Source: Desulfobulbus sp.
GTDB taxonomy: Bacteria > Desulfobacterota > Desulfobulbia > Desulfobulbales > Desulfobulbaceae
Assembly: GCA_050252135.1 (NCBI GenBank)
Contig: JBFWLN010000001.1
Coordinates: 341,721 to 365,720, forward strand
DNA length: 24,000 nucleotides
Direction: 5' to 3'
Positions 9,513-24,000 of the stretch are shown here, one piece after another. Every line of letters begins with the position of its first letter. Position 1 is the stretch's first letter. The notes beneath the pieces are model-generated. The model saw only the letters and a list, made by a program, of their open reading frames with translations. It did not search any database and was not told the origin of the DNA. The position numbers were made by a program, and so were the translations under genes.

Positions 9513-10355
9513 ATGCAACCCAAAAAGCTGACCATCCCTGATATCAGAAACCGCAAAAACGACACCCCGATCGCCGAGCTGACCGCCTATGATTATCCCT
9601 GGGCCAAGGTTGCAGATACCGCCGGGATCGATGTCGTACTGGTGGGAGACAGTCTGGGCATGGTGGTGCTGGGCTATACGGATACGGTTTCCGTGACCAT
9701 GGAGGAGATGATTCACCACACCAAGGCGGTGGTCCGCGGGGTGGAACGGGCCCTGGTGATAACCGACATGCCTTTTGGTTCCTACAACAGCTCGATTCCA
9801 GCGGCGATCAACAACGCCAACCGTATTCTCAAGGAAGGGCGGGCCGATGCGGTGAAGCTCGAGGGTGGGGTCTCCATGGCCGGAACCGTGGCAGCCATCG
9901 TCAATGCCGGGATTCCGGTGCAGGGACATATCGGCCTCACCCCGCAAACCGCGACCGGCCTCGGCGGCTTCAAGGTCCAGGGGAAAAGCGCTCAGGCGGC
10001 CAAACAGCTGCTCGACGATGCCAAAGCCCTGGAGGATGCAGGTTGTTTTTCCATAGTCCTTGAGGCCATCCCCGCTCCCCTGGCCGAGCGTATCACCCAG
10101 GCCATCTCCATTCCGACCATCGGCATCGGCGCCGGCCCCAACTGTGACGGCCAGGTGCTGGTGATTCACGACCTGGTGGGGTTATACGACCGTTTCACCC
10201 CAAAATTCGTCAAACAGTACGCCAATATCAACGAACCGATCCTGGAGGCCCTGCGCCAGTACAAGGCCGAGGTGGAGAACCGCACCTTTCCCACCGAGGC
10301 CCACAGCTTTACCATGAAATCAGAAGAACTGGACAAACTGCTCCAGCTCTACTGA
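9513..10355 (+). CDS. panB: 3-methyl-2-oxobutanoate hydroxymethyltransferase
   Basis: 280 aa containing LTAYDYP, VLVGDSLGMVVLGY, KLEGG, GHIGLTPQ and IGIGAG, the canonical PanB motifs. Confidence 0.95.
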   Translation: MQPKKLTIPDIRNRKNDTPIAELTAYDYPWAKVADTAGIDVVLVGDSLGMVVLGYTDTVSVTMEEMIHHTKAVVRGVERALVITDMPFGSYNSSIPAAINNANRILKEGRADAVKLEGGVSMAGTVAAIVNAGIPVQGHIGLTPQTATGLGGFKVQGKSAQAAKQLLDDAKALEDAGCFSIVLEAIPAPLAERITQAISIPTIGIGAGPNCDGQVLVIHDLVGLYDRFTPKFVKQYANINEPILEALRQYKAEVENRTFPTEAHSFTMKSEELDKLLQLY

Positions 10356-10416
10356 TCCATATGGCTGGACCACCTAATCCAGCCACCTTCCAATAGAGGA
10401 AGAGGCCTCTGGGAGG

Positions 10417-11649
10417 TTAGGGTTGAAGCACAAAGGTGCCTGCCTTGACCTCCTGATCAATATCCGTCAGGGCTCGCTTCATCTGCTTAAGCGCCTGACG
10501 GATGCGGTTTTCATTTTCCACCAGGGCCAGACGGAGGTAACCGTCACCTTCCTCGCCGAAACCGGCACCAGGTGCCAGGGCAACGTTGGCTCGGTTCATC
10601 ATCTCAATCGAGAATTTCACCGACCCCATGTGGTTGTACGGCTCAGGAATTTTCACCCACAAGAACATACCGGCCTTGGGTATCTCCACCTCCCATCCCA
10701 TACGCATGAGTCCCTCGCAGAGCACATCCCGCCGTTTCTGGTAGATCGCGACCTGTTCGAGAATGGTATCGTCGCAGTCGCGCATGGCCACGATGCCAGC
10801 CACCTGGATTGCCGAGAAGATACCGTAATCATAATAGCCCTTGATCTTGGACAACCCGCCGACCATCTCCTTATTGCCCACGCAGTAACCAAGACGCCAG
10901 CCCGCCATGTTGTAGGATTTGGAAAAGGAGCCGAACTCAACCCCCACATCCAGGCCTCCGGGAATCTCCAAAAGCGAGGGGGCGACGGCTCCGTCGTAGG
11001 TGATTTGAGCGTAGGCGAAATCGTTGATGACCATGAAATTGAACCGCTTGGCCAGCTTGACCATTTCGACAAAGAACTCCCGGGTGGCCAGGGTGCCGGT
11101 GGGGTTATGCGGGTAGTTGAGCATCACCAGTTTGGGCCGGGGATAGAGAGATTGACACATTGAACTCACCTGCCGCAGAAACTCCTCCTCCGACCCCAGA
11201 GGAAACCGGATGACACTGGCCCCGGCAATGACAGCCGCGTAGACATGGATCGGAAAAAAGGGTGAGGGCACCAGGACCGTGTCCCCAGGCCCGAGCAGGG
11301 CCAGGCAGAGATGGGAGATTCCCTCCTTGGAGCCGATGGTACAGATGACATCATCCTCGCCGTTGAGTTCCACTCCGTACTTGCGCTTGTAATAAAGGGC
11401 TATTTCCCGTTTGAGATTCTTCATCCCACCGGCGGCCGGATAGCGGTGGGTTTTAGGGTCGACCGCAACTTCACAGAGTTTTTCGGTGACCCGGTTAGGC
11501 GTGGGATCCATGGGATTGCCCATACCCAGATCGATAACATCGATCCCTTGCCAACGCTTTTCCATCTTTATTTTGTTTATCATTCCGAACAGATACGGCG
11601 GAAGCTGCTGCATTCGCTCGGCGAAACGGATGGTAACCTCGTTATTCAT
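10417..11649 (-). CDS. alaC: Class I/II PLP-dependent aminotransferase, AlaC (YfdZ)-like glutamate-pyruvate aminotransferase
   Basis: Close resemblance along its length to my recollection of E. coli AlaC (LPPY.F, DLGMGNP, IGSKEG, SFSKSYNMAGWRLGY with the PLP lysine). ATG 11649 with AGGAGAG 5 nt upstream is preferred over the TTG at 11664. Confidence 0.85.
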   Translation of the reverse strand: MNNEVTIRFAERMQQLPPYLFGMINKIKMEKRWQGIDVIDLGMGNPMDPTPNRVTEKLCEVAVDPKTHRYPAAGGMKNLKREIALYYKRKYGVELNGEDDVICTIGSKEGISHLCLALLGPGDTVLVPSPFFPIHVYAAVIAGASVIRFPLGSEEEFLRQVSSMCQSLYPRPKLVMLNYPHNPTGTLATREFFVEMVKLAKRFNFMVINDFAYAQITYDGAVAPSLLEIPGGLDVGVEFGSFSKSYNMAGWRLGYCVGNKEMVGGLSKIKGYYDYGIFSAIQVAGIVAMRDCDDTILEQVAIYQKRRDVLCEGLMRMGWEVEIPKAGMFLWVKIPEPYNHMGSVKFSIEMMNRANVALAPGAGFGEEGDGYLRLALVENENRIRQALKQMKRALTDIDQEVKAGTFVLQP

Positions 11650-11709
11650 GACGCTCTCCTGCAATAGTCGTTAGGCCATGGCTGACGCGGCCGGCTTTTC
11701 CGGACAACC

Positions 11710-11740
11710 AAAAAAAAGCCTGAACCATGCGGCCCAGGCG
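11710..11740 (-). terminator. Second of two tandem intrinsic terminators between ilvN and the aminotransferase
   Basis: Minus strand: a GCCTGG..CCAGGC-type hairpin (11718-11739) followed by U8 (plus-strand A-run 11710-11717). Confidence 0.5.
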
Positions 11741-11780
11741 AAAAAAAAAACGCCATGGGCCGGTGTTCCAGTCCATGGCG
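11741..11780 (-). terminator. First of two tandem intrinsic terminators between ilvN and the aminotransferase
   Basis: Minus strand: CGCCATGG...CCATGGCG, an 8-bp perfect stem (11751-11780) that can be extended by 2 bp, followed by U10 (plus-strand A10 at 11741-11750). Confidence 0.7.
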
Positions 11781-11915
11781 AAGTATGCAAAACGGTTTTT
11801 AAATATTATGCAACCGGTCGCCAATGAACTGAGTCCATCGCCGCCGCTGCCGCGATCAATCTATACATACAGAGATCCGGTGGTGTCCTTGAAAGAAAGA
11901 GTTGTTAATGCATCA

Positions 11916-11944
11916 GTAGTAGCGACAAACACCGTTCTTGTCAA
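11916..11944 (-). promoter_or_regulatory. Sigma70-like promoter candidate directed toward the aminotransferase
   Basis: Minus strand: TTGACA (11944-11939), a 17-nt spacer, then TACTAC (11921-11916), immediately after the ilvN stop. Confidence 0.4.
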
Positions 11945-11972
11945 CTGCGGCCTGGAGGGATTCAGGTGAAAT

Positions 11973-12299
11973 TCACACCACCCGCTCCATCATCATCTCC
12001 ATTTCCCGAATTTTGGTCCGGGCATCGTTGCGCTCCTCCACCACAAGCACATCCTCCAGCTTGGCCAGTTGCTTCACCACCTGCTCGAGTTTATCGGTTT
12101 CATCGACCTTGAGCCAGATACAGCTGGTCTCCCCTTGACCGGTGGCATTACAGAAAATGCCCTCCATGTTAAAGGCACGCCGGGCAAAGAGGCCGCAGAT
12201 CTGGGACATCACCCCGGGATGGTTGTTCACTTGCAGACGAAGAATAGTGGTGTGCATGGGCATGGTCTCCATGGGGCTGTTGGTATTAGTTTTGTGCAT
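11973..12299 (-). CDS. ilvN: Acetolactate synthase small (regulatory) subunit, short IlvN type
   Basis: NHPGVMSQICGLFARRAFNMEGIFC and KLEDVLVV closely match my recollection of E. coli IlvN. The gene overlaps the ilvB stop. The start is uncertain: ATG 12299 has GGAG 6 nt upstream, and in-frame ATGs also lie at 12272, 12263 and 12257. Confidence 0.85.
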   Translation of the reverse strand: MHKTNTNSPMETMPMHTTILRLQVNNHPGVMSQICGLFARRAFNMEGIFCNATGQGETSCIWLKVDETDKLEQVVKQLAKLEDVLVVEERNDARTKIREMEMMMERVV

Positions 12300-13968
12300 G
12301 ATGGTCTCCGATCATGGTGGTGTTGGCCGCTCCGGGGGGGACCATGGGGGTTACCTCTTCCTCGATATCCATCGGGATATGGATCAGACAAGGGCCGGGA
12401 TAGCGCATGGCCTCGGCAAGCGCCCTATCCGGATCGGACGCGGTGCCCAGATCATAGGCCTGCATGCCGAAACCACGGGCAATGGCGGCAAAGTCGATCT
12501 TGATCCCGTAGGAGGAGGCAAAATAGTGGCGCTCGTAAAAAAGCCGCTGCTGCTGGCGAACCAGGCCCAGACTTTGGTTATTGAAAACTACAATCTTGAT
12601 CGGGACCTGCTGCTCAACCGCAGTGGCCAGTTCCTGGATATTCATCTGCAGGCTGCCGTCCCCGGTGAAGCAGACCACCGCCCTCCCGGGATGGGCCAGG
12701 GCCGCACCAATGGCCGCCGGCATACCAAAGCCCATGGTCCCCAGCCCGCCCGAGGTCAGCAGTTGCCGTGGAAAAGTGAAGGGATAGGCCTGGGCCACCC
12801 ACATCTGGTGCTTGCCAACATCGGTGCTGACAAGGGCATCGGCCCCGGCCAGTTCCGCCACTTTCCGGATATAAGTAAAGGGTCTGCCGGGCAAGAAATC
12901 ATCGGCATGGTAACGGGGAAAATCCTGTTGCAGCTGAAGAATACGGTCCTTCCACTCCTGTCGCGATTGTGAATCCACCTTGGCCAGGAGGGTTGCAAAG
13001 GCTGTGCGGACATCGGCGGTGATCCCCGCATCGGCTGAGCGTAATTTACCGATCTCACTGGCATCGATGTCCACATGAATAACCTTGGCCTTGGGACAAA
13101 ACGCACTGATCAGACCGGTCGCACGATCATCGAAACGTACGCCCGCAGCAATCAGCAAGTCGCACTCGGCCATGGCCAGATTGGTGGCACGAGTGGCATG
13201 CATCCCCAACATGCCCAAGGAAAGAGGGTGGTCGGTGGGCATGATCCCCAGCCCCATCAGGGTCATAACCGTGGGTATATTGCCCTGCTCGGCCAGCTCT
13301 CGAGCCTCAACTGCAGCACCGGCATGGATAACCCCGCCGCCCAGATAGAGGATCGGCCGTTCGGCATTGTTGATCATGGTTGCAGCCGTTGCGATGTCCT
13401 CGGCATGTCCGTCCTTATTTTCTTCGCGGCTGAACTCTTCCGGCCAGGACTCGAATTCGAGGATCTCCGTCTGCACATTTTTCGGCACATCGATCAGGAC
13501 CGGCCCGGGACGTCCGCTTCCTGCCAGATAAAAGGCTCGAGGCAGGATAGTCAGCAATTCCTGCGCTGAGCGAACCAGATAGTTGTGCTTGGTAACGGGC
13601 AGGGACATACCGTAGGTGTCAACTTCCTGGAAGGCATCGGTGCCCAACAAGGTGCTCGGAACCTGGCCGGTGATGCAGACAACGGGAACGGAGTCCAGAT
13701 AGGCATCGGCCAGGGCGGTGAGAATATTAGTGGCACCTGGGCCGGAGGTGGCGAAGCAGACCCCGACCTCACCGGTTGAGCGGGCCATGCCCTGGGCAAT
13801 GAAGCCTGCGCCCTGCTCGTGGCGGGCCAGTACGTGGCGGAGGGACGAGTTGGTGGCTAGGGCGTCGTAGATAGGCAGATTGGCACCACCCGGGATACCG
13901 CTGATAGTACGAATACCTCGTCTTTCCAAATAACGAATGATGATCTGGGCGCCGTTGAGTCTTGGCAT
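12286..13968 (-). CDS. ilvB: Acetolactate synthase large (catalytic) subunit, ThDP-dependent
   Basis: 560 aa with HEQGAGFIAQGMAR, GPGATN, the ThDP motif GDGSLQMNIQEL...NN, and an RBS AAAGGAGGAA upstream of ATG 13968. Confidence 0.95.
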   Translation of the reverse strand: MPRLNGAQIIIRYLERRGIRTISGIPGGANLPIYDALATNSSLRHVLARHEQGAGFIAQGMARSTGEVGVCFATSGPGATNILTALADAYLDSVPVVCITGQVPSTLLGTDAFQEVDTYGMSLPVTKHNYLVRSAQELLTILPRAFYLAGSGRPGPVLIDVPKNVQTEILEFESWPEEFSREENKDGHAEDIATAATMINNAERPILYLGGGVIHAGAAVEARELAEQGNIPTVMTLMGLGIMPTDHPLSLGMLGMHATRATNLAMAECDLLIAAGVRFDDRATGLISAFCPKAKVIHVDIDASEIGKLRSADAGITADVRTAFATLLAKVDSQSRQEWKDRILQLQQDFPRYHADDFLPGRPFTYIRKVAELAGADALVSTDVGKHQMWVAQAYPFTFPRQLLTSGGLGTMGFGMPAAIGAALAHPGRAVVCFTGDGSLQMNIQELATAVEQQVPIKIVVFNNQSLGLVRQQQRLFYERHYFASSYGIKIDFAAIARGFGMQAYDLGTASDPDRALAEAMRYPGPCLIHIPMDIEEEVTPMVPPGAANTTMIGDHHAQN

Positions 13969-14006
13969 GGTCTGTTCCTCCTTTGGTGTGAGTGTCGCGT
14001 AAGGGC

Positions 14007-14041
14007 AAAAAAAAACCCCCGTCGGCAGGCGCCGACGGGGG
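14007..14041 (-). terminator. Attenuator terminator between the leader peptide and ilvB
   Basis: Minus strand: CCCCCGUCGGC / GCCU loop / GCCGACGGGGG, a perfect 11-bp stem (14016-14041), followed by U9 (plus-strand A9 at 14007-14015). It sits 38 nt upstream of the ilvB ATG. Confidence 0.85.
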
Positions 14042-14069
14042 TTGAATTCACTTGTGTAAACGTTTCCCG

Positions 14070-14168
14070 CTAAGGCGCCTCGAACCGTGCACGCACCACG
14101 ACCACCACACTCACGACCACGAGTGCGAGGGAAACGATGATGTTGCTGATACTGGATACGGTTTTCAT
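14070..14168 (-). CDS. ivbL: Val-rich leader peptide of the ilvBN operon (IvbL-like), 32 aa
   Basis: My own translation of the minus strand gives MKTVSSISNIIVSLALVVVSVVVVVRARFEAP*, with 10 Val, 3 Ile and 2 Leu. It is too short for the ORF track. It is followed by the terminator above. It has the same length and AP end as the E. coli IvbL sequence as I recall it. Confidence 0.75.
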   Translation of the reverse strand: MKTVSSISNIIVSLALVVVSVVVVVRARFEAP

Positions 14169-14184
14169 GGTTGCCTAAACGGAA

Positions 14185-14633
14185 TTATAATTCCCAGAGC
14201 GGGAATGATGATTCTTGATACCCAAGGTTAGCTTTTTCGTCAAGAAGAATGTTTCCTAAAAAAAACAAATAATGTAACAACGGACCAAGATCCTGCTGAT
14301 CAAGCCGAATCAAGCCCTGTGTCCGGGCAGCTCCATGGCGAATCGGTACTCCTCCGTTGTGATTTCCCCGTCCAACTCCGGAAAACCACTCGCGCCCCGC
14401 CACGGGCGACAGCACTGCCCCAGAGGGTACAGTTGGGCAGCCCATGGCCTGCAGTTCAAGCATGCCCTCGACAGAATCGGTTCACCCGCCAGCCGGTCTA
14501 CCTGGCATTGTCGAGGGCAGAATGTGCAGGAGGTCAACAGCGCATGCGTGGTAGCAAACCGCAGCTGCAGCTTACCCGTATCCTGAAAGACTGAGCAGCT
14601 AGGATCATGAAGAGGCTCTCTAACAATTGAATA
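14185..14633 (-). pseudogene. Decayed remnant of a PflX-like (COG1313-type) radical-SAM activase
   Basis: One frame gives ...QDTGKLQLRFATTHALLTSCTFCPRQCQVDRLAGEP, which fits the N-terminal C.LCPR.C.V.R..GE signature. A second frame then gives RFCRG (expected G.C..G). Later fragments are GEITTEEYRFAMEL in the first frame and MLELQAMGC in the third frame. The span is far too short for the ~330-aa enzyme, and I found no intact CxxxCxxC cluster motif. Confidence 0.35.
14215..14243 (-). promoter_or_regulatory. Sigma70-like promoter candidate for the ilvBN leader
   Basis: Minus strand: TTGACG (14243-14238), a 17-nt spacer, then TATCAA (14220-14215). A perfect TATAAT also lies inside the palindrome at 14181-14194. 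Confidence 0.4.
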
Positions 14634-14755
14634 AAAACCGTAGGGCTCTCCAGCATGCAAACGCCCAAAAAACACAACGGAGAAAATAAACTGGCTCAAA
14701 CCAAGCCAGTGCATTACGTTATTCACATCTACCCACTGAACAACAGGAAATATCC

Positions 14756-14944
14756 ATGCAACCGATTTCCTCTTTTCCTCAGGCAGCTTCTCCGAAACCT
14801 TCAGCCGTACCAACGCTGCAAGCGCACCTCACCGAGGCCCCCTGCTGAGGCCCGAAATCGGAGCCCCGGGCCGGGGTTCATGAACGTGCGGGCTATACCC
14901 TTTGTCCTTTTGTCTTAGGTTTTACCCAAACCCTGATTGGCCCG
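14756..14944 (+). other. Candidate N-terminal extension of hgcA, in frame with it and interrupted only by TGA 14846-14848
   Basis: ATG 14756 has AGGAAA 5 nt upstream. Translation: MQPISSFPQAASPKPSAVPTLQAHLTEAPC-TGA-GPKSEPRAGVHERAGYTLCPFVLGFTQTLIGPVPQ..., continuous with hgcA. See the findings. Confidence 0.4.
14858..14883 (+). promoter_or_regulatory. SECIS-like stem-loop candidate downstream of the in-frame TGA
   Basis: GAGCCCC / GGGCC loop / GGGGUUC, a 7-bp stem (14861-14879). A 3-bp lower stem is possible (14858-60 with 14881-83, A14880 bulged). The apical loop starts with GG, 22 nt from the U of UGA. Confidence 0.3.
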
Positions 14945-15928
14945 GTGCCGCAAATTGCCACAACACCAAATCGTCATGATATCTGGGGAACGATTGGTGC
15001 CCGCATCGGCCTCATCCGCAGTCATTATAGGGTTACTCCCGGTCTCTACGCCATAGGATCGCCAGCACCAGAGGATCCTGTCCTGGTCACGGCCAACTAC
15101 AAACTGTCCTTTGACGCCCTCCGCCACCAGCTTACCGGTGTCAATGCATGGATCATGGTGGTCGACACCCGAGGGATCAACGTCTGGTGTGCGGCAGGGA
15201 AAGGTAGTTTTTCTTCCCAGGAGGTCATCGAAAGTATCCAGCGGTTTCAGTTAGGTGAAATAGTTTGCCACCGCGAACTGATCCTGCCGCAACTGGCGGC
15301 AACCGGGGTTTCTGCTCAGGAGGTCAAAAAAGGTTGTGGCTGGTCCATACTTTTTGGCCCCATTCGTGCCTCAGACCTGCGCTGTTACCTCCAACACGGC
15401 AAGGTTGCCGACGAGACCATGCGCGAGGTCACTTTCACCCTCAAAGAACGCCTGGAACTCATTCCAGTGGAATTATTCCTGCTTGGCAAGCCGCTTTTCC
15501 TTCTTTTGCTGCTGGGTTTTGTCCTCTCAGGAATCGGGCCGAATATTTTTTCCTTGAGTAGTGCATGGCACAGAGGGTTGCTGTTTTTCGCTGCCACTCT
15601 CATGGGCATTATCAGCGGAGCCGTTGTCACCCCCGTGTTCCTTCCCTGGCTTCCCTGTCGTCAATTTTGGCTCAAGGGGGCATGGGCATCCTTGCCGGTT
15701 GTGGCCTGTGCGCATGCATTGTTTTCTGCCCTCTCTGGGGCAAATCAACTAGCCCTTTCCCTGTGGATCGTAACAATCAGCTCCTACTTAGCGATGAATT
15801 TCACCGGTTCCACCCCGTTTACCTCCCCTAGCGGGGTTGAGCGGGAAATGCGACGCGGCCTGCCGTGCCAAAGCTTTATTGCCCTGGCAGCATTGGGTCT
15901 TTGGCTGATGGCACCCTTTTGGACTTAA
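14945..15928 (+). CDS. hgcA: Mercury methylation corrinoid protein HgcA (core from the first canonical in-frame start; the true N-terminus is probably upstream)
   Basis: The cap-helix signature GINVWCAAGKG (N(V/I)WCA(A/G)GK), PGLYAIG and VLVTANYKLSFDALR lie in a CFeSP-like domain. About 5 C-terminal TM helices follow. hgcB follows 9 nt later. Confidence 0.9.
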   Translation: MPQIATTPNRHDIWGTIGARIGLIRSHYRVTPGLYAIGSPAPEDPVLVTANYKLSFDALRHQLTGVNAWIMVVDTRGINVWCAAGKGSFSSQEVIESIQRFQLGEIVCHRELILPQLAATGVSAQEVKKGCGWSILFGPIRASDLRCYLQHGKVADETMREVTFTLKERLELIPVELFLLGKPLFLLLLLGFVLSGIGPNIFSLSSAWHRGLLFFAATLMGIISGAVVTPVFLPWLPCRQFWLKGAWASLPVVACAHALFSALSGANQLALSLWIVTISSYLAMNFTGSTPFTSPSGVEREMRRGLPCQSFIALAALGLWLMAPFWT

Positions 15929-15937
15929 GCGAAACAG

Positions 15938-16225
15938 ATGAAAGGATATCAATATCTTCGAGGAGTAGCCACTCTCCAGGTCTATCAAGAACGTTGCATT
16001 GGCTGCGGCGCCTGTGTTCAGGTGTGCCCGCACCGAATCTTGACCTTGACCGGAGGCAGGCTTGTGGTGCGAGAGAGGGACCTATGCATGGAATGCGGGG
16101 CCTGCGCCCGAAACTGCCCGACGGAGGCCGTCACGGTGACCCCGGGCGTGGGGTGCGCGATGGCCATCCTCGGAGCGTGGATAAATCGTTTTTTTGGCAG
16201 AAAGATGTTTTCCGATTGCTGTTAA
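15938..16225 (+). CDS. hgcB: Mercury methylation ferredoxin HgcB (2x[4Fe-4S])
   Basis: 95 aa with CIGCGACVQVCP, the HgcB-diagnostic CMECGACARNCP, an extra conserved Cys in GVGCA, and a C-terminal CC pair (...SDCC*). Confidence 0.9.
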   Translation: MKGYQYLRGVATLQVYQERCIGCGACVQVCPHRILTLTGGRLVVRERDLCMECGACARNCPTEAVTVTPGVGCAMAILGAWINRFFGRKMFSDCC

Positions 16226-16244
16226 CAAGTGGGTATCCAACTCA

Positions 16245-17219
16245 ATGAACGAGCAATTTCCCCGACCCAGAATTCTTGTCAGCCGGTGTTTGGGTTTTGC
16301 AGCCTGCCGTTACGACGGCGCGATTCTTAAAAATAGTTTTGTCGAACAGTTGCAGTCCCAGGTCGACCTGATTCCGGTCTGCCCGGAGGCCGACTGTGGC
16401 CTAGGCATTCCCCGGCCGCCAATCCGGCTCTGTAGCTCCGAACAGGGATTGGTTGTCTACCAGCCTGCGACAAGCCGCGATGTCACCGCCCGGCTGCAGG
16501 CTATGATCGCAACCATTCTCACCGAAAATCCTCAGGTGGATGGCGCCATATTAAAAAGCAAGTCACCCAGCTGTGGCCTATTTGACGCCAAGATCTACCA
16601 GGGGGTCGAAAAGCCGCAGCCGCTTGGGAAAGGAGCCGGTGTTTTTGGGGAACAGGTTTTGCGGCACTGCGTCGGGGGGGCCATCGACGACGAGATGCGC
16701 TTAACCAACATTATCCTCCGCGAGCATTTTTTGATCAAGGCCTTTACCCTGGCCCGCATCCGGGAGTTGAGCACGCGACCGACCATGGGAGCGCTTGTAG
16801 CCTTTCATGCCAGCCACAAACTGCTTTTTCTCGCCTATAATCAGAGCCATTTCCGCCTTGCGGGCAAGATCGTGGCCAACCAGGAGAAACTGCCGGTCGC
16901 CGAGGTGGTTCAGCGTTATCGTGAGCAACTGGTGCATATCCTGGAAACACCGATGCGCATCCCCGGGGTGATCAACACCCTCTACCATGCATTCGGCTGG
17001 ATTTCCGAGCATCTGGGAGCAGAAGAAAAACAGTACCTGATCAACACCATCGAAGAGTACCGCGATGAGCGCCTACCGCTGCAGGCGGTCACCCGTTTAA
17101 TCGAGGCCCACGCCCTTCGATTCAGCAACGAATACCTTCTCAGCCAAATTTTCCTTCGTCCTTACCCCCGCGCCCTGGCTGGTTTGCACGATTCCGGCCG
17201 GGGGCGCGAGGTCCGCTGA
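16245..17219 (+). CDS. DUF523 (TudS-like [4Fe-4S] desulfidase fold) / DUF1722 (YbgA-like) fusion protein
   Basis: ILVSRCLGFAACRYDG, PVCPEADCGLGIPRPP and KSKSPSCGL are the DUF523 Cys motifs. The C-terminal half (FHASHKLLFLAYNQSHFRLAGKIVAN) is YbgA-like. ATG 16245 lies 19 nt after the hgcB stop. Confidence 0.75.
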   Translation: MNEQFPRPRILVSRCLGFAACRYDGAILKNSFVEQLQSQVDLIPVCPEADCGLGIPRPPIRLCSSEQGLVVYQPATSRDVTARLQAMIATILTENPQVDGAILKSKSPSCGLFDAKIYQGVEKPQPLGKGAGVFGEQVLRHCVGGAIDDEMRLTNIILREHFLIKAFTLARIRELSTRPTMGALVAFHASHKLLFLAYNQSHFRLAGKIVANQEKLPVAEVVQRYREQLVHILETPMRIPGVINTLYHAFGWISEHLGAEEKQYLINTIEEYRDERLPLQAVTRLIEAHALRFSNEYLLSQIFLRPYPRALAGLHDSGRGREVR

Positions 17220-17230
17220 GGACGGCGCGT

Positions 17231-17626
17231 TCAATTTTCCTGAGATTGACTTTGAATCGTCTTCAACAAGGCTTGCAAGCCGATAGCCTGGAGCACTGTC
17301 AAACATTCATCATGATGGAAGAATCCGGCCATAACTGCGGCAAACTGGGTGGCAAGAAAGACCATCTCGCCGTCTTCCTCCTTGGCCAGTAAACGACGGC
17401 ACCCGGCGATATCATCGGTTTCCACCGCTCCGATGATATCGTTGAGCCAATCGAGCTGACTCTCCTCAAAATGAAACTCCACCATGGCCTGGGCGTACAT
17501 GGATACAATCGCAGCCCGGTGGTCGTAAATGGCATCCAGATCATTCTCCTGGGCAGCGTCCAGCACCTGTTCAATCTGCTCCAGCAGTTCCTGAACATCC
17601 TGATTTTCCTGATTTTCTTCATTCAT
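17231..17626 (-). CDS. Small acidic hypothetical protein (131 aa)
   Basis: ATG 17626 has AGGAGA 6 nt upstream. The protein is strongly acidic and helical (MNEENQENQDVQELLEQIEQ...). It is the last gene of the pta-eamA operon. I recognise no family. Confidence 0.55.
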   Translation of the reverse strand: MNEENQENQDVQELLEQIEQVLDAAQENDLDAIYDHRAAIVSMYAQAMVEFHFEESQLDWLNDIIGAVETDDIAGCRRLLAKEEDGEMVFLATQFAAVMAGFFHHDECLTVLQAIGLQALLKTIQSQSQEN

Positions 17627-17659
17627 ATGGCGTCTCCTATGCAATGCGATGGGTAGATT

Positions 17660-18541
17660 TCAACGTGACTCCCGCCCGGACTGCATCCCCATATAGAGAG
17701 CAAGCAAGGTGCCCGTTACACCTACCCAGTTTATCACGCTGGTCGGACGATGAAACAACAATACGTCCCAAAGAAAAGAAAGCAGTGGTTGAAAGAGGAG
17801 AATAAACCCGGTCAGAGAGGCACGCATTCGCGGCATACCGCCTGCGATCAAAGCCCAACCGAGGGTTTGGCTCAAGAGGCCAAGAGCTAACAACGCTAGC
17901 CAGCTGATCCTATCGGGGATAGCAAGGGAGGTGCCGGTGGCTCCCAGAAAGATACCTAAAAATAGCGCACTTGCCCCGGAAACCAGCATCAGGTTGAAAA
18001 AGAAGGAAAACTCACGCGCCTCGGTCTGGAGTTGACGCAAAATGAGCAAAAAGCCGCTGTAGCACAGCGCAGTCAAAAGCCCAAGCACCACTCCCCAACG
18101 ATACTCTTCTCCCAGAGCCTGCCAAGGACCGCCTACCAGCAGATACAGCCCCAGAAGCGCCAATGGCACCGCAAAGAGAAAGCGAAGATGCAGTCGTTCA
18201 CCCAAAAACAGTACCCCAACGGCGGTGAGCAAATAGACCTGGAAGTTGCCGAGAATGGTAGCCAGGCCCAGGCCGACATATTGGATACTGGCATGCCAGC
18301 AATAAAGATCTAAAGCAAACAGCAATCCGCAGACAAGCCCCCAGAACAAAAGCCGTTTATTAATCGGATGGTATTCACCGCGCAGAATGCAGATCAACAG
18401 CAAGAATAAAAATCCGAAAAAAACGCGGTAAAAGGCGGAGACCGTGGGCGGAACCGTGGCTACCTTCACCCAGACCGCGGAGAAAGAGATGCAGAAGGCT
18501 CCGATCAGTATCGCGGCCAAGGCAGGCAGACGGGTCAACAT
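17660..18541 (-). CDS. EamA/DMT-superfamily transporter (10 TM)
   Basis: A hydrophobic ~293-aa protein with the duplicated 5-TM EamA-like layout. ATG 18541 lies 5 nt after the pta stop. The alternative TTG 18550 overlaps it. Confidence 0.8.
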   Translation of the reverse strand: MLTRLPALAAILIGAFCISFSAVWVKVATVPPTVSAFYRVFFGFLFLLLICILRGEYHPINKRLLFWGLVCGLLFALDLYCWHASIQYVGLGLATILGNFQVYLLTAVGVLFLGERLHLRFLFAVPLALLGLYLLVGGPWQALGEEYRWGVVLGLLTALCYSGFLLILRQLQTEAREFSFFFNLMLVSGASALFLGIFLGATGTSLAIPDRISWLALLALGLLSQTLGWALIAGGMPRMRASLTGFILLFQPLLSFLWDVLLFHRPTSVINWVGVTGTLLALYMGMQSGRESR

Positions 18542-18546
18542 CGGGA

Positions 18547-20682
18547 TCAATCAGCAAGACGCGTTGTTGGTGGCAGCGCTGAAGCCTCAACAGACAGCGC
18601 CTGAGCCTGAATGGCGGTGATAGCCACAGTGTTGACGATGTCGGAGACGAGACAGCCACGGCTGAGATCGTTAACCGGTTTGTTGAGCCCCTGAAGGATC
18701 GGACCGATGGCCACGGCTCCAGAGGACCGCTGCACGGCCTTGTAGGTGTTGTTGCCGGTATTGAGGTCGGGAAAAATAAAGACACTGGCACGGCCCGCCA
18801 CTTCGCTCTCGGGCATTTTTTCATGCGCCACCGACAGATCAATGGCAGCATCATACTGGATTGGGCCGTCGATCTTCAAATCAGGACGGTGTTGTCGAGC
18901 CAGTTCCACCGCACGGCGCACTTTATCAACCTCCTCCCCCTGTCCGGAAGTACCGCTGGAATAGGAAAGCATGGCCACGATCGGCTCGATGTTGAACATG
19001 GCCGCAGTTTCCGCAGAGCGGATGGCGATTTCCGCCAACTGCTCGCTGTTTGGATTGGGATTGACCGCGCAGTCCCCGTAGACCAGCACCCGGGTATCCA
19101 GGCACATGAAAAAAACACTGGAGACCACTGACACCCCAGGTCGGGTACGAATGATCTGAAAGGCCGGCCGCACCGTATGCTGGGTGGTATGCACCGCCCC
19201 CGAAACCATGCCGTCGGCATAGCCGGTATGGACCATTAGTGTGCCGAAATAGCTGACATCATTGATAGCATCACGAGCGTAATCCCGAGTGGACCCCCTA
19301 TGCTTGCGGGCCTGATAGAGGCTTTCAACCAACTCCTCACGCAGGGGCGAGGTCCTGGGATCGATGATAGCCACATCCTGAAGTTTCAAACCCAGGGCCG
19401 CAGCTCGGCTGCGGATGGTCTTCTCCTCACCGAGCAGGGTTAAGTTAACCACTTCGCGGGCACGTAGGATCTCGGCTGCCTGGAGGATTCGGTCCTCCTC
19501 GCCCTCTGGAAAGACAATATGCTTGCGATCGGCGCGGGCTCGCTGAAAAAGGGTATATTCGAACATCAAGGGCGACATGGTGGTGGTCACGGTTTCAATC
19601 ACCTGCTGTTCCAGGGCGGTTGCATCAACGTGGCTCTCGAACACACCCAAGGCGCGGGCTATTTTTTGCGCGTTCCTGGGCCGCAGGGTTCCCTTAACGG
19701 CCGCGGCGCGGGTGGCGGCAGTATAGGTATCTCCGGGCATGAGATAAATCGGCAAGGGGAGGTCATCGATCCCATTGAGTAAACGAACCATGGATGAACT
19801 CGGCTCCAGATTGCCGGAGAGCAACAGGCCCGCAGGGGTTGGATAATTACGTGAGGCAATCGCCCCCAGGGTGGCAAAAATGATATCCGGACGATCGCCG
19901 GGCGTGACCACCAGATCATCCTCCTCAAGAAAATCAATGTAATTGGCCGGACTCATTGCCGCGACCTTGATTGCATGGACATCACGCTGCAACCCGGCCT
20001 CTGGGCCGCTGAAATGGCGGGCACCGAGATCCTCGATAATCTCTTCCATGGTCGGCATGCTGAATCCATGCATTTCGGGCAAAAAATCAAGCCGATAAGG
20101 TCCCCCCTGATGGTTTGCTCGAATTTCCGATTCAGCCGTTTGCAGCAGATCGGGATCGATCCGATTCACAAACACAGCCAACAATGGACACTGGTACTGC
20201 TCGTAGAGCTGTTCAGCTATGCGGATATTTTCTTCTATCTCCTCAATATTCCGCTCATGGCCATTCACCACATGCAGGGTAGGAGCTCCCAATTCCCTGG
20301 CGATGCGAATACTGATGTCGTAGTCAAAAGCCTCGGACATACCAACAATGTTAGGCCCTTCACAGAGAAGGAAGTCGCATTTTTTCCGAACCTCTCCATA
20401 TTTGCGCACGATCTCCCGAAAAAGGAGCCGTTCCTCGCCATCAGCGATCAGCGTGCGGGCCAGTTCGTGACTGACCCCGGCCATTTCATCAAAACGCAAA
20501 GTAAGACCATAACGATCCTTAATCAGAGCAATATCATTATCCTCACGACCATCGCCGGAAATAATCGGCCGAAAAAAGCCGATCCGTTCGATTCGTCGTG
20601 AGAGCAATTCCATAACCCCAAGGGTTACCACCAGTTTGCCACACTCTTTTTCAAGATTGGCGATATACAAACAGTCTGCCAT
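18547..20682 (-). CDS. pta: Phosphate acetyltransferase, long form (N-terminal DRTGG/P-loop-like domain plus PTA domain)
   Basis: About 711 aa. The C-terminal half matches the E. coli Pta motifs as I recall them (GAVHTTQHTVRPAFQII, YGDCAVNPNP, MLSYSSGTSG, FIFPDLNTGNNTYKAVQRS, PVNDLSRG). ATG 20682 has AGGTGA 5 nt upstream. Confidence 0.95.
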   Translation of the reverse strand: MADCLYIANLEKECGKLVVTLGVMELLSRRIERIGFFRPIISGDGREDNDIALIKDRYGLTLRFDEMAGVSHELARTLIADGEERLLFREIVRKYGEVRKKCDFLLCEGPNIVGMSEAFDYDISIRIARELGAPTLHVVNGHERNIEEIEENIRIAEQLYEQYQCPLLAVFVNRIDPDLLQTAESEIRANHQGGPYRLDFLPEMHGFSMPTMEEIIEDLGARHFSGPEAGLQRDVHAIKVAAMSPANYIDFLEEDDLVVTPGDRPDIIFATLGAIASRNYPTPAGLLLSGNLEPSSSMVRLLNGIDDLPLPIYLMPGDTYTAATRAAAVKGTLRPRNAQKIARALGVFESHVDATALEQQVIETVTTTMSPLMFEYTLFQRARADRKHIVFPEGEEDRILQAAEILRAREVVNLTLLGEEKTIRSRAAALGLKLQDVAIIDPRTSPLREELVESLYQARKHRGSTRDYARDAINDVSYFGTLMVHTGYADGMVSGAVHTTQHTVRPAFQIIRTRPGVSVVSSVFFMCLDTRVLVYGDCAVNPNPNSEQLAEIAIRSAETAAMFNIEPIVAMLSYSSGTSGQGEEVDKVRRAVELARQHRPDLKIDGPIQYDAAIDLSVAHEKMPESEVAGRASVFIFPDLNTGNNTYKAVQRSSGAVAIGPILQGLNKPVNDLSRGCLVSDIVNTVAITAIQAQALSVEASALPPTTRLAD

Positions 20683-21113
20683 GGAATTCACCTGGGTAAC
20701 AAAAAAATTTAAGAGAAGGACGTCGCATCTTAGTTGAACCCCACCAGCAATACAAGCCTATTTCTCTTGTATTTTCAAGCCAATGGACCTGATAACTTTC
20801 ATTTGCGCCTTGGGGTTCATCAACACAAGCTAACATACAAAATTATGCGTTACGAAAAACTAGAATGAACGTGCAATGGACAATTAGGATACACTTAATT
20901 TTTTGGACCCCATGCCTTGATTTTCTTTAGGAATTTTTTTTTTCTTGACAAGATACGAGACAGTAACGTTGTGGGACAAACTGAGTGGGGAGTCAGGAGG
21001 TGCCGAATATACTTACAGTTTATACTGAATGGCAAATCATTGTTTGGCACCCCTGAACGTCAAACTCCGCGAAAAAATGGCAAAAATCGGTATCAACACC
21101 TTGATTTTGTTCG

Positions 21114-21142
21114 TTGACAGCCATTTCCTTCTCCTTTATAGT
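21114..21142 (+). promoter_or_regulatory. Strong sigma70-like promoter candidate upstream of satP
   Basis: TTGACA (21114-21119), a 17-nt spacer, then TATAGT (21137-21142). This would give a ~360-nt leader before ATG 21511. Confidence 0.5.
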
Positions 21143-21510
21143 CACCGCTAATTTGACAAAGGGGATTCAGGCTAATCTATATGCTAAGGGGGTGATATTT
21201 AAGAAGTTAGTAAAAATTATCAATAAAATGAGCAATGCTTCAAGGGGGGAGGAAGATAAGTTATTTGTTTCTATAACTGAATAAATTGACTCAAATTTTA
21301 TTGCCTGGATTTTTACCTTTAATACCGTAAGTGTTCTTCTAGTTGTTTGATGTAACCAAAAGCAGTGTGTCGACATCGCGATAACCTAAAAACTAGATAT
21401 TGCGATGGGGTTTTAAGTTATGTTTTACCGTTTACTTGTGAAAGTAGTCGATAGGTACACTTAACCTGTCACGTTCGTGGCAAGAGACAATCACATCATA
21501 GGAGAAAGAT

Positions 21511-22098
21511 ATGGCAGATGTAAAACCCCAGGGTAATCCGGCAGTCGTAGGTCTTGCAGGCTTTGGTTTGACCACCATGATGCTTCAGTTCCACAACCTC
21601 GGCTGGATGGGCACTGGCACAATCTTTTGTACAGCTATGTTTGTCGGCGGATTGATGCAATTCATCGCGGGTTTCCAGGAATTCAAGTGCGGCAATAACT
21701 TCGGTTATAGCGCATTCTGCACGTATGGCGGATTCTGGATGGCACTCGGCCTTATATGGGCCCTGGCCGACCTGGTACCACCAACTTGGAAACATCTGAG
21801 CATTACCGGTAATGATATCGGGTTCTTCCTTGTTGCCTTCACCTTGTACACCGTTATCATGTGGATCGGCTCCATGCGTGTGCATATGGCCATGTTCCTC
21901 ACCTTCACCACCTTGATTCTCGGATTCATCGGCCTTGACCTGGTTTTCCTGGCTGGCATGAAAGAGAGCCTGTTGAAGCTGACCGCCATTGACCTGATTG
22001 TCTGTGCATCTCTGGCCTGGTACATGATGGCTGCCGCTATCTTTGCTCAGCTGTTTGGTCGTCCAATTCTCCCTGTAGGAAAGCCTTTAGTCAACTAA
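21511..22098 (+). CDS. satP: Succinate-acetate/proton symporter, GPR1/FUN34/YaaH family
   Basis: 195 aa with six hydrophobic segments and the family signature NPAVVGLAGFGLTTMMLQ (NPAPLGL.GF..TT). The RBS GGAGA is 5 nt upstream. Confidence 0.9.
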   Translation: MADVKPQGNPAVVGLAGFGLTTMMLQFHNLGWMGTGTIFCTAMFVGGLMQFIAGFQEFKCGNNFGYSAFCTYGGFWMALGLIWALADLVPPTWKHLSITGNDIGFFLVAFTLYTVIMWIGSMRVHMAMFLTFTTLILGFIGLDLVFLAGMKESLLKLTAIDLIVCASLAWYMMAAAIFAQLFGRPILPVGKPLVN

Positions 22099-22141
22099 TT
22101 CTCACTTGGGTGGTTACGCACCACCACGACAAAGTCTTTTT

Positions 22142-22178
22142 AAAAAAGGCGTCCCGTTTTTCGGGACGCCTTTTTTTT
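22142..22178. terminator. Bidirectional intrinsic terminator shared by satP (+) and the TauE transcript (-)
   Basis: GGCGTCCCG / TTTTT loop / CGGGACGCC, a perfect 9-bp stem (22148-22170), flanked by A6 (22142-22147) and T8 (22171-22178). Confidence 0.85.
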
Positions 22179-22478
22179 ATTGAATGAATGCACACTTCAG
22201 TTGAGTCATCACCATCATCAGGCAATATCCCTATCGACATAGGGCAGGATTAGCCAGGAACTCAGAAAAATCCAACCGGTGATCGGCCAAGGGACCATCC
22301 AAAATTTCTCCATTCCCCATAGGGAAATATGTATCCACTACGACCTGACCCAGCTAATATTCGCTGTACCTGCTGTGCCAGTATCGTGGACGATAGTTGC
22401 AGTAAGGATCATAGCCTTGAAATGCCCCCTGGCTAAATGAGAATTGGCGATGTTATTACGGCAAGGCTGGCCGATTGA

Positions 22479-23195
22479 CTAGCGGCAAAGCAACATCAGC
22501 CCCAGGAAGGCCAACAGCAGGTAAATAATCCGCAAATAGGTTGAGCGCGGTATTCTGTCACCGATGCGCGAACCGATCAAGGTACCAAGAAGGACAAAGC
22601 TAGAGGTGAGGGCAAAGAAATGCAGGGTAGAATCGGTGATGATGCCGTTACCGGCATGAACCATGGCGGTAACATACCCATTGATGACGAAAAATCCGGT
22701 CAGTGTGGCACGGATTTCATCTTTTTTCCAATTATGGAGGGTGGTGTAAATTATCGCCGGGGGACCGCCCGCGCCGACGGTGGCATTAATGGCACCGGAA
22801 AAGAAGCCTGCGATATAGCCCCAGATCCGTGGTGGGTTAATGGGCTTGGGGGTAAAACGCAGGTTCAGCAAACTGATGGCGATCAATACCACGCCCAATA
22901 GGCGGCTGATCACCACCGGATCGGCCTGTTTCAGAAATGCTGCACCCAGCAAAATTCCGGGAACAGATCCGGCCAGTAACGGTAGAATCTTTCGCCAATC
23001 GAGCAAATGCCTAAGGGTGTAAACCAGGGTTGTCGTCACGACCAACCCGTTGAGGATAGCCAGGGGTACCGCCTGCTTGACATCCATGATTAGGCTGAGC
23101 AAGGGGATAGCGACCAAGGCACCGCCAAAGCCCGTCAGGCCTTGGACACCGCCGGCGAGAAAAAAAATGCAGCAGGAAAAAACAGCAACCGTCAT
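22479..23195 (-). CDS. TauE/SafE (DUF81) family sulfite/anion exporter-like membrane protein
   Basis: Hydrophobic protein with the duplicated motif G(F/A)GG..(V/I)..P (GLTGFGGALVAIPLL and NATVGAGGPPAIIY). The start is uncertain among ATG 23195, GTG 23198 and TTG 23228, and none has a clear SD. Confidence 0.75.
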   Translation of the reverse strand: MTVAVFSCCIFFLAGGVQGLTGFGGALVAIPLLSLIMDVKQAVPLAILNGLVVTTTLVYTLRHLLDWRKILPLLAGSVPGILLGAAFLKQADPVVISRLLGVVLIAISLLNLRFTPKPINPPRIWGYIAGFFSGAINATVGAGGPPAIIYTTLHNWKKDEIRATLTGFFVINGYVTAMVHAGNGIITDSTLHFFALTSSFVLLGTLIGSRIGDRIPRSTYLRIIYLLLAFLGLMLLCR

Positions 23196-23611
23196 CACAT
23201 GGTCATGGGCGAGGTGTTCTGTTGGCAAAATTGCTGTACGGGAAAGCCACCACTATAGGTCGCCCCTCCCCTTACGTCCATCAATTCCGACATGCTGCCA
23301 TCAACCACCAATGCGACAATTTGTCGCCAATTCTGCAATTTTGTAAACAACACCACCATCAGGAGCTCTTACCAGCAACCAGGCAGGTGAACTCCATTTC
23401 AGCTATACGCCTCTACCCCTCGACATTCCATCCTTTTTCAAAAAAGTTTTCAAGAGGCCTGCCTATTGCATTGAATCAGGCATATTCGTTATTTAAAAAA
23501 ATAATAGCGAATGAATCCTACGGCAGAAGACACACCCTGCTTCCGGAAAATATCGGCGAATCAAGGATCATTTTTCCTTGCAGGTGCGAACGATTGTAAG
23601 GTGTTATTTTT

Positions 23612-23638
23612 AACGTTATTCTACAAACGAATAGCGTT
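23612..23638 (+). promoter_or_regulatory. Inverted repeat (candidate operator) just upstream of the ModE-like gene
   Basis: AACGTTATTC-N7-GAATAGCGTT (9/10 complementary), ending 4 nt before the AGGAGA RBS. Confidence 0.3.
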
Positions 23639-23655
23639 CTTCAGGAGAACCGGTT

Positions 23656-24000
23656 ATGAAAAAAACATGCATGACTCCACCCGATTGTTGCGTCATCATT
23701 GAAATGGAACGAGGAGCGAATTTAGGTTACCGCAAGGCCGTGCTTCTCGAAGAAATTCGGGCGTTGGGATCGCTGACCAAGGCGGCCAAAGTCTCGAAGA
23801 TCGACCAGCAACACGCCCGCGACTTGATCCAGGAAATGAACCGCTCTTTTTCCGAACCGCTCGTCTATTTCCTTGGTAACCCAAGCCTCTCGGATCGGGT
23901 GGAGCTGACAAATAAGGGGTTGAGTACCGTCAAGAGCTATTGGCTGCAGTTTGAGCCTGTCTGGCTCTCGATTATAGAGGAGCGCTCAAGGCACTATTGA
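23656..24000 (+). CDS. ModE N-terminal-domain-like winged-HTH protein (stand-alone, 114 aa)
   Basis: RKAVLLEEIRALGSLTKAAKVSKIDQQHARDLIQEMNRSF resembles the ModE/MopA HTH region (..SISQGAK..GISYKSAWD.INEMN) as I recall it. AGGAGA lies 7 nt upstream. The stop TGA is at 23998-24000. Confidence 0.65.
   Translation: MKKTCMTPPDCCVIIEMERGANLGYRKAVLLEEIRALGSLTKAAKVSKIDQQHARDLIQEMNRSFSEPLVYFLGNPSLSDRVELTNKGLSTVKSYWLQFEPVWLSIIEERSRHY

Follow-up and report, generated by a model that had tools for sequence, protein, structure and literature searches.

A putative selenocysteine codon in the full-length hgcA gene of a Desulfobulbus sp. and a conserved hairpin downstream of it

HgcA, the protein that makes neurotoxic methylmercury (MeHg), has been described as a selenoprotein. 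In the preprint of Haft (2022; bioRxiv 10.1101/2022.07.06.499078), most HgcA proteins are reported to be selenoproteins with an N-terminal PCUGP motif, U being selenocysteine (Sec). There, all 20 of the 20 HgcA proteins examined extend to 363–400 residues via a single UGA with PCUGP invariant, and the Sec machinery was present in all 20 species. A 2026 review (PMC13188914) includes HgcA (NF040863, motif CU) among the prokaryotic selenoproteins, and a study of purified HgcAB (PNAS 2024) cites the proposal that HgcA is a selenoprotein. The Thermodesulfobacteriota are among the bacteria that are richest in selenoproteins. Here we analyzed the hgcA gene in a stretch of 24,000 nucleotides from Desulfobulbus sp. 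(assembly GCA_050252135.1, contig JBFWLN010000001.1, positions 341,721 to 365,720 of the forward strand), hereafter called the window, in which the hgcA frame is interrupted by a TGA codon at positions 14846–14848. The extension published for ND132, MAPPDVPARDDAPCUGPRPDPRAGVFEKPGYAVEPFV, clearly matches the window: APCUGPRPDPRAGVFEKPGY in ND132 is a close match to APCUGPKSEPRAGVHERAGY in Desulfobulbus sp. An initial annotation of the window, made from the sequence alone, had proposed that HgcA may have an N-terminal extension with a Cys-Sec dyad and had implied that such a form was new. The dyad is supported by the data presented below; the novelty is not, as a selenoprotein HgcA with PCUGP was published in 2022 (Haft) and an NCBI record reads through the TGA. 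The selenoprotein form of HgcA, including that of the present locus, is thus already known, both from publication and from annotation.

On the + strand, hgcA can be read in one frame from ATG 14756 up to a stop codon whose last base is 15928; TGA 14846–14848 is the sole interruption. The codon immediately preceding the TGA is TGC (14843–14845). The translation reads MQPISSFPQAASPKPSAVPTLQAHLTEAPC-[TGA]-GPKSEPRAGVHERAGYTLCPFVLGFTQTLIGPVPQIATT and so on, with ...EAPC-TGA-GPK... around the interruption. A Shine-Dalgarno-like sequence, AGGAAA, is located at 14745–14750 (+), as read from the sequence, with a 5-nt spacer to ATG 14756–14758. We consider, from sequence comparisons, that the TGA is very probably the selenocysteine codon of a full-length hgcA, with a probability of about 0.88. 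Read in this way, the coding sequence (14756–15928, +, stop codon included) would encode 390 residues including Sec31, and its downstream part matches NF040863. The NCBI record JBFXGP010000114.1 calls a 390-residue product across the TGA with an identical span. The 30 codons before the TGA (14756–14845, +) encode a Pro/Ala/Ser-rich peptide, MQPISSFPQAASPKPSAVPTLQAHLTEAPC, which is probably flexible, as suggested by the AlphaFold2 model of a relative with Cys in place of Sec, and whose start is homologous to that of the closest relative. Its last residue, Cys30 (TGC, 14843–14845, +), would be the first member of the Cys-Sec dyad, followed by the predicted Sec31 (TGA, 14846–14848, +) in PCUGP. 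No in-frame ATG, GTG or TTG is present from the TGA to GTG 14945, and GTG 14945 itself lacks a Shine-Dalgarno sequence. The segment GPKSEPRAGVHERAGYTLCPFVLGFTQTLIGP (14849–14944, +), although conserved in relatives with Sec as well as in those with Cys, contains no start codon and would therefore be translatable only by read-through of the TGA. Two mechanically called open reading frames (ORFs) overlap the 5' region of hgcA, namely 14310–14813 (-), a 167-residue antisense frame, and 14655–14918 (+), 87 residues in another frame. Both are absent from the NCBI record and are probably spurious.

The window was compared with its 80 best genomic relatives (81 sequences in total), which show 51–69% identity in the best aligned segment and belong mostly to Desulfobulbales, Pseudodesulfovibrio and Desulfobacterales. 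For each relative, the upstream frame was translated with TGA shown as U. Two sequences were left out at the column of interest, L034 (cut by a contig end) and L043 (a variant described below), leaving 79 scorable sequences. Among these, the column is occupied by TGA in 51, the window included, by TGC in 22 and by TGT in 6, and hence by Cys in 28. We refer to these two groups as Sec-type and Cys-type. The preceding codon is Cys (TGC or TGT) in all 79, and the column is followed by Gly-Pro or Gly-Ser. The position of the column is also constant, as it lies 33 codons upstream of the start of the tblastn match, which is equivalent to GTG 14945, in 74 of the 79 sequences; the five remaining offsets (31–44 codons) follow from later match starts or from a shorter linker. 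The motif is PCUGP in Sec-type sequences and CCG[P/S] in Cys-type relatives, and the Sec-type consensus is [DE]-A-P-C-U-G-P-K-x-[ED]-P-R-[SA]-G-V-H-E-R-[AP]-G-Y. All 50 Sec-type relatives have an open frame and an in-frame start upstream of the TGA (in L053, the contig ends 44 nt upstream of it). L001, the closest relative, begins with MQPIAPFPQASPPEPLAFPAFQPQAEAPC, which is homologous to the start of the window protein (both MQPI...). The peptide preceding the TGA is otherwise poorly conserved except for its last few residues. The orthologue alignment that had been suggested in the initial annotation thus places a Cys opposite the TGA, and homology upstream of the GTG continues across and beyond the TGA in the orthologues.

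Fifty other species, with protein identities as low as about 52%, retain the TGA, and the frames on either side of it are intact. In a neighbour-joining tree built on the body of the HgcA protein, Sec-type and Cys-type sequences form two clean clades separated by one bipartition, so that a single state change explains their distribution. Given the deep divergence of the sequences, the 51 TGA codons represent one ancient state that has been retained, which is good evidence of selection. In L043, the dyad column holds neither CU nor CC. Upstream of its position 4001, this sequence shows a C-G-C-G variant (...DGGCGCGNP...), which may be a third form of the dyad site.

A putative upper hairpin of a bacterial selenocysteine insertion sequence (SECIS) is located at 14861–14879 (+), with the stem GAGCCCC/GGGGUUC and the loop GGGCC (14868–14872), as indicated by folding, by the relatives and by synonymous recoding. 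It begins 12 nt past the TGA. A G in the first loop positions is a rule for bacterial SECIS elements in the bSECISearch literature. ATG 14756, the AGGAAA sequence 5 nt upstream of it, the TGC-TGA pair and this hairpin had all been pointed out initially, and every coordinate was found to be correct. A local hairpin at the same offset, from +15 to +33 counted from the U of UGA, is present in 51 of 51 Sec-type sequences, with GGUCC, GGGCC or GUGCC as apical loop, and is weak or absent in the Cys-type sequences. As a measure of hairpin stability, the local minimum free energy (MFE) over 25 nt was calculated: its mean is -11.0 kcal/mol for the 51 Sec-type versus -4.15 kcal/mol for the 28 Cys-type sequences, and none of the 51 Sec-type values exceeds -5 kcal/mol. 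In a synonymous-recoding test, codons were resampled while each encoded peptide was kept. With 200 recodings of the window, the native sequence reached -14.8 kcal/mol versus a mean of -6.1 kcal/mol (z = -3.57), only 1 of the 200 being as stable. The mean z of this test is -1.95 for the Sec-type sequences, 24 of 51 being at or below the 5% level, versus -0.06 for the Cys-type sequences (2 of 28). This within-sequence test is free of the kinship problem that affects comparisons between the two groups.

The silent sites responsible are nearly fixed in the Sec-type stem when compared with codon usage in the hgcA body: Pro at +6 is CCC in 44 of 51 sequences (37% in the body), Arg at +7 is CGG in 38 of 49 (29%), and Gly at +9 is GGG in 43 of 44 (23%). 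A subclade of seven members has a CCAC/GUGG stem instead of CCCC/GGGG, with the hairpin and a GGUCC-type loop kept. The hairpin is selected at silent sites, and only in the TGA forms, and its structure is conserved beyond the needs of the encoded peptide. The conservation of the hairpin in relatives, which the initial annotation had put forward as a check, is therefore observed throughout the Sec-type group. A lower stem was also considered, pairing GGCCCG (14849–14854) with CGGGCU (14889–14894) on the + strand. It was rejected, since it occurs in the MFE fold of the window only and is unsupported by the relatives. In alignment A1, the variable column 6 is paired with an invariant column 47, and this lower stem therefore shows no covariation.

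Several results weigh against the selenocysteine reading. RNA folding, which had been advised at the outset, does recover the hairpin 12 nt past the TGA, but the 66-nt fold is ordinary when compared with dinucleotide shuffles (z = -0.72, with 44 of 200 shuffles as stable). The hairpin is hence unremarkable in the window alone for such a GC-rich RNA, and the case for it rests on the comparison with relatives. There, fixed-register counts give 74% paired positions and two pairs with double changes, a modest covariation, and RNAalifold applied to the 51 Sec-type sequences returned no consensus structure. Both results can be ascribed to the runs of C and G, along which the pairing of the stem can shift by one position from lineage to lineage, so that column-based methods fail. 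For this reason, local MFE and synonymous recoding were used in place of RNAalifold, and no weight is given to the fixed-register counts. A scan of 14700–15000 against Rfam matched no family, giving only chance snoRNA-like matches with E above 1. Within the 24-kb window, neither selA, selB, selC nor selD was found among the Pfam-annotated ORFs, nor any tRNA including tRNA-Sec, and no other convincing gene with an in-frame TGA was detected. No tRNA-Sec was found near hgcA in the eight closest loci either. The searchable literature yielded no experimental report of Sec incorporation into HgcA. Finally, since Sec-type and Cys-type sequences are separated by a single bipartition, the statistics comparing the two groups do not represent 79 independent samples and their p-values overstate the support.

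What else could the TGA be? It might be a nonsense mutation of an ancestral TGC, i.e. of a former CC pair, leaving either a pseudogene or a protein reinitiated at GTG 14945. The TGA is one base away from TGC, Cys-type relatives do have CC at this place, the NF040863 profile begins at GTG 14945 and the short form of ND132 HgcA is seemingly active in Escherichia coli lysate. However, such a mutation would not be expected at the same column in 50 other species with intact flanking frames. The 32 codons from the TGA to the GTG are conserved as protein in both types and offer no start codon, the GTG has no Shine-Dalgarno sequence, and the hairpin selected at silent sites follows the TGA in the TGA forms only. 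We therefore consider this explanation, which was among those listed in the initial annotation, as very improbable. A sequencing or assembly error, listed there too, is still less credible. A single-base error could produce TGA from TGC, and the source is seemingly a draft or metagenome-type assembly, but the identical TGA is found in L081 (GCA_050177895.1, JBFXGP010000114.1), which corresponds to window positions 10017–24000. The first 117 nt of L081 are unrelated to the window and a single nucleotide polymorphism (window position 18422) separates the two over 13.9 kb. This different left end and the polymorphism indicate that L081 is an independent assembly, and the shared TGA, like the 50 other genomes with TGA at this column, argues against an error. 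That the open frame upstream of the TGA could have arisen by chance is contradicted by the alternation of TGA and Cys at one column among the relatives.

Alternatively, the first 30 codons could be a leader, an upstream ORF with coupled reinitiation at a non-canonical codon, or the UGA could be read by a near-cognate tRNA for Trp or Cys. The poor conservation of the peptide before the TGA, apart from its last few residues, and the fact that no SECIS is recognised by the standard tests (RNAalifold, Rfam) would fit with such mechanisms. On the other hand, the residues flanking the codon in P-C-[U/C]-G-P are conserved, before as well as after it, and the region is one continuous ORF in the Cys-type relatives. 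The 12-nt spacing and the G-first loop of the hairpin also fit SelB-dependent recoding, Sec machinery was present in all of Haft's 20 species, and the Thermodesulfobacteriota are rich in selenoproteins. We regard a leader or near-cognate decoding as improbable, if a little less so than a nonsense mutation.

If the TGA is indeed a Sec codon, we can propose the following scheme. The ribosome would start at ATG 14756. At the UGA, the hairpin 14861–14879 with its GGGCC loop would recruit SelB with Sec-tRNA(Sec), and Sec would be inserted. The product would have an N-terminal tail carrying Cys30-Sec31 in PCUGP, and ordered structure in the corrinoid domain would begin about 20 residues further on. 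On this flexible arm, the thiol/selenol pair could bind Hg(II) or the MeHg product and pass it to or from the methyl-cobalamin site. It may act alongside the C-terminal Cys-Cys of HgcB, in the manner of the Hg-relaying cysteine pairs of MerA, MerT and MerP. As a stand-in for Sec-type HgcA, an AlphaFold2 model was made of the Cys-type relative P0098 (54% identical; mean predicted local distance difference test score, pLDDT, 85.9). Its pLDDT is 42 for residues 1–10 and 59 for residues 11–20, with CC at 11–12, and reaches 93 by residues 31–40, the first strands being formed there by the conserved GY..PFV..F segment. From the low pLDDT of the tail in this model, the arm that carries the dyad would be flexible. 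Cys-type sequences have a mean of 2.46 Cys in the stretch of 40 residues preceding the dyad, versus 0.67 in Sec-type sequences, and an extra CC pair is found in 17 of 28 Cys-type tails (e.g. L030, L033, L065, L069 and L075) versus none of the 51 Sec-type tails. In Haft's preprint, the Cys-only homologues of CU proteins of the SAO system and the MerT family are said to be 'packed' with extra Cys, which matches these tails. The additional Cys residues suggest chelation of a soft metal, with one selenol replacing several thiols. The C-terminal CC pair of HgcB is needed for methylation (PNAS 2024). The extra Cys in Cys-type tails, the flexible arm and this required pair together favour a role of the dyad in Hg(II)/MeHg capture and hand-off, which we propose tentatively, at somewhat short of an even chance.

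The main functional rival is that Sec is inserted and that the Cys-Sec pair is a redox centre, a selenenylsulfide that could for instance reduce or protect the corrinoid or the Fe-S centres, or exchange thiols. Adjacent C-U pairs can form selenenylsulfides, as does the GCUG of thioredoxin reductase. Most bacterial selenoproteins are redox enzymes (2026 review, PMC13188914), and in lysate the short form remains able to methylate cobalamin and Hg. However, the extra CC in 17 of 28 Cys-type tails resembles multi-thiol metal chelation and not a single redox couple, HgcB ends in the CC pair needed for methylation, and a CU motif is also present in the MerB-like SaoL, in MerT-family and in other SAO proteins tied to organometal chemistry (Haft 2022). 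We consider a redox role unlikely. Whichever the function, ND132 HgcAB produced in E. coli methylated cobalamin and made MeHg in lysates (PNAS 2024), which speaks against an essential role of the dyad. From the Cys93 numbering, we infer that this construct was the short form without the dyad, which is then probably not strictly essential for catalysis.

A more far-reaching idea is that the dyad is the primary Hg(II) acceptor of native HgcA, with one selenol doing the work of the two or more Cys pairs of the Cys-type proteins. We hold this to be doubtful. It is a hypothesis of Haft's, sharpened here by the split into Sec and Cys clades and by the extra CC pairs. If it were true, the biochemical and structural HgcA studies found, which used the short form beginning after the UGA, would have overlooked where the substrate really enters and would give too low an estimate of the native kinetics. 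Selenium supply would directly control MeHg output in Sec-type methylators (Desulfobulbales, Pseudodesulfovibrio), with no such control in Cys-type methylators, for example many Desulfobacterales. More generally, the native N-terminal Cys-Sec pair of an enzyme producing neurotoxic methylmercury is an obvious candidate for the site of Hg entry, and this would tie methylmercury production to the availability of selenium.

By its profile match, the ORF is unambiguously HgcA in its downstream part: the NCBIfam equivalog model NF040863 (HgcA_corrinoid) scores 413 bits versus a curated cutoff of 275 and covers profile positions 1–324 of 325. This profile starts exactly at the residue equivalent to GTG 14945, so that the extension of about 63 residues with the Cys-Sec dyad lies outside the model. 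As a consequence, hgcA surveys based on this hidden Markov model cannot separate Sec-type, Cys-type and truncated calls. In a protein-database search with the extended query, the closest homologues (59–74% identity) are 311–350 residues long and cover 78–88% of the query. These values indicate that they are cut at the TGA, as is typical of selenoproteins that have not been recognised. The Cys-type homologues, which are more distant, have 372–452 residues and cover 85–98% of the extended query. The entries P0002–P0040, such as Despr_0439 of Desulfobulbus propionicus and JWJ90_14805 of Desulfobulbus rhabdoformis, are 'hypothetical proteins' starting after the TGA. Judging from these lengths, many public HgcA entries remain N-terminally truncated, and primers, phylogenies, models and expression constructs that are based on UGA-cut entries lack the first 50 or so residues.

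The cap-helix Cys of HgcA, presumed to be the corrinoid ligand, is encoded at 15188–15190 (+) within INVWCAAGK (Cys145 in the long form, Cys82 in the GTG-start form), as seen in the translation and as an invariant column in alignment A2. W144, C145, A146, G148 and K149 of the motif N(V/I)WCA(A/G)GK are invariant in 50 homologues. The role of this Cys as corrinoid ligand rests on published work on Cys93 of ND132, as cited in PNAS 2024. The C-terminal half, a multi-helix transmembrane domain, is fully covered by NF040863, and the P0098 model has long helices at 210–239, 248–275, 285–303, 310–329 and 340–368. No HgcA structure was returned by a PDB search or by a literature search for a cryo-electron microscopy structure of HgcAB. 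The hgcB gene (15938–16225, +; NF040864, 116.6 bits versus a cutoff of 99) begins 9 nt 3' of hgcA. It encodes a ferredoxin of 95 residues with two CX2CX2CX3CP motifs, Cys73 and a C-terminal Cys94-Cys95, i.e. the Cys and not the Sec form. Directly 3' of hgcB, the gene at 16245–17219 (+) encodes a protein with 2-thiouracil desulfurase (DUF523) and DUF1722 domains. In the comparison of the two assemblies, the mismatch between positions 1–117 of L081 and 10017–10133 of the window lies inside panB, and one of the two assemblies may have a chimeric or misjoined contig end here.

Some hgcB genes of the relatives also deserve mention. In Sec-type loci where HgcB ends with C-x-C and not with CC, the last Cys codon is followed by TGA in 20 of 21 cases (L015, L018, L024, L027, L028, L031, L032, L036, L040, L045, L046, L048-L050, L052, L056, L058, L068, L071 and L080), compared with just 19 of 51 Sec-type loci that use TGA as the stop codon of hgcA. 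These hgcB loci fall largely in one part of the Sec-type clade. A second Sec site at this TGA was considered and rejected: no conserved hairpin or tail follows it, and the next in-frame stop is 5–285 codons further on. The TGA after the last Cys of hgcB looks like an ordinary stop codon. A different situation is found in L070, where hgcB, about 1 kb downstream of position 3902, has an in-frame TGA at the column of the residue-73 Cys (PGVG-U-AAY) and where HgcA is Cys-type (DLCCS). A rare Sec form of HgcB is reported by Haft (2022), and HgcB of L070 is such a form. In the same locus, an ORF resembling a heavy-metal-associated (MerP/CopZ-like) domain, as judged by eye, ends just upstream of hgcA.

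Several known systems can be compared with the features described here. Like the SelB-dependent SECIS of the E. coli fdhF type, the hgcA hairpin is part of the coding sequence, its first base lying about 11–12 nt past the UGA. The apical loop of the fdhF element, GGUC, begins with G, as do the GGUCC, GGGCC and GUGCC loops of the hgcA hairpins. Unlike the fdhF type, the hgcA element has a short stem of very high GC content whose register differs between relatives, and it has no Rfam match. The large subunit of the corrinoid iron-sulfur protein (AcsC; PDB 2h9a, 4c1n and 4djd) is homologous to HgcA residues 91–213, the corrinoid-binding domain (E = 3e-13), but lacks the N-terminal Cys-Sec tail, the transmembrane domain and the Cys as cap-helix ligand. 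The C-terminal CC of HgcB and the pairs of MerA (NmerA, C-terminal CC), MerT and MerP resemble the dyad in being vicinal soft-ligand pairs at flexible termini, with a presumed role in the binding and transfer of Hg(II). They differ in that they consist of thiols only and have an experimentally backed role, whereas the HgcA dyad would use a selenol and its relay role is deduced. An adjacent Cys-Sec dyad with a link to mercury or organometals is also described for the CU selenoproteins of the SAO system (SaoL, SaoB, SaoC) and for CU proteins of the MerT family, which have other folds, other positions of the dyad (near the C-terminus in SaoL and SaoC) and no sequence homology to HgcA.

The closest described system remains the selenoprotein HgcA of Haft. 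The window shares with it the identical PCUGP, a single in-frame UGA and an extension at the N-terminus, ahead of the previously annotated start; its 390 residues fall within the reported 363–400, and nothing essential differs. A hairpin with silent-site selection and a Sec/Cys clade structure were not found for HgcA in the HgcA section of the preprint or in its passages on SECIS, hairpins and stem-loops. What the present analysis adds to the published selenoprotein is thus the conserved hairpin with selection at silent sites, the clean split into Sec and Cys clades, and the extra Cys pairs in the tails of the Cys-type proteins.

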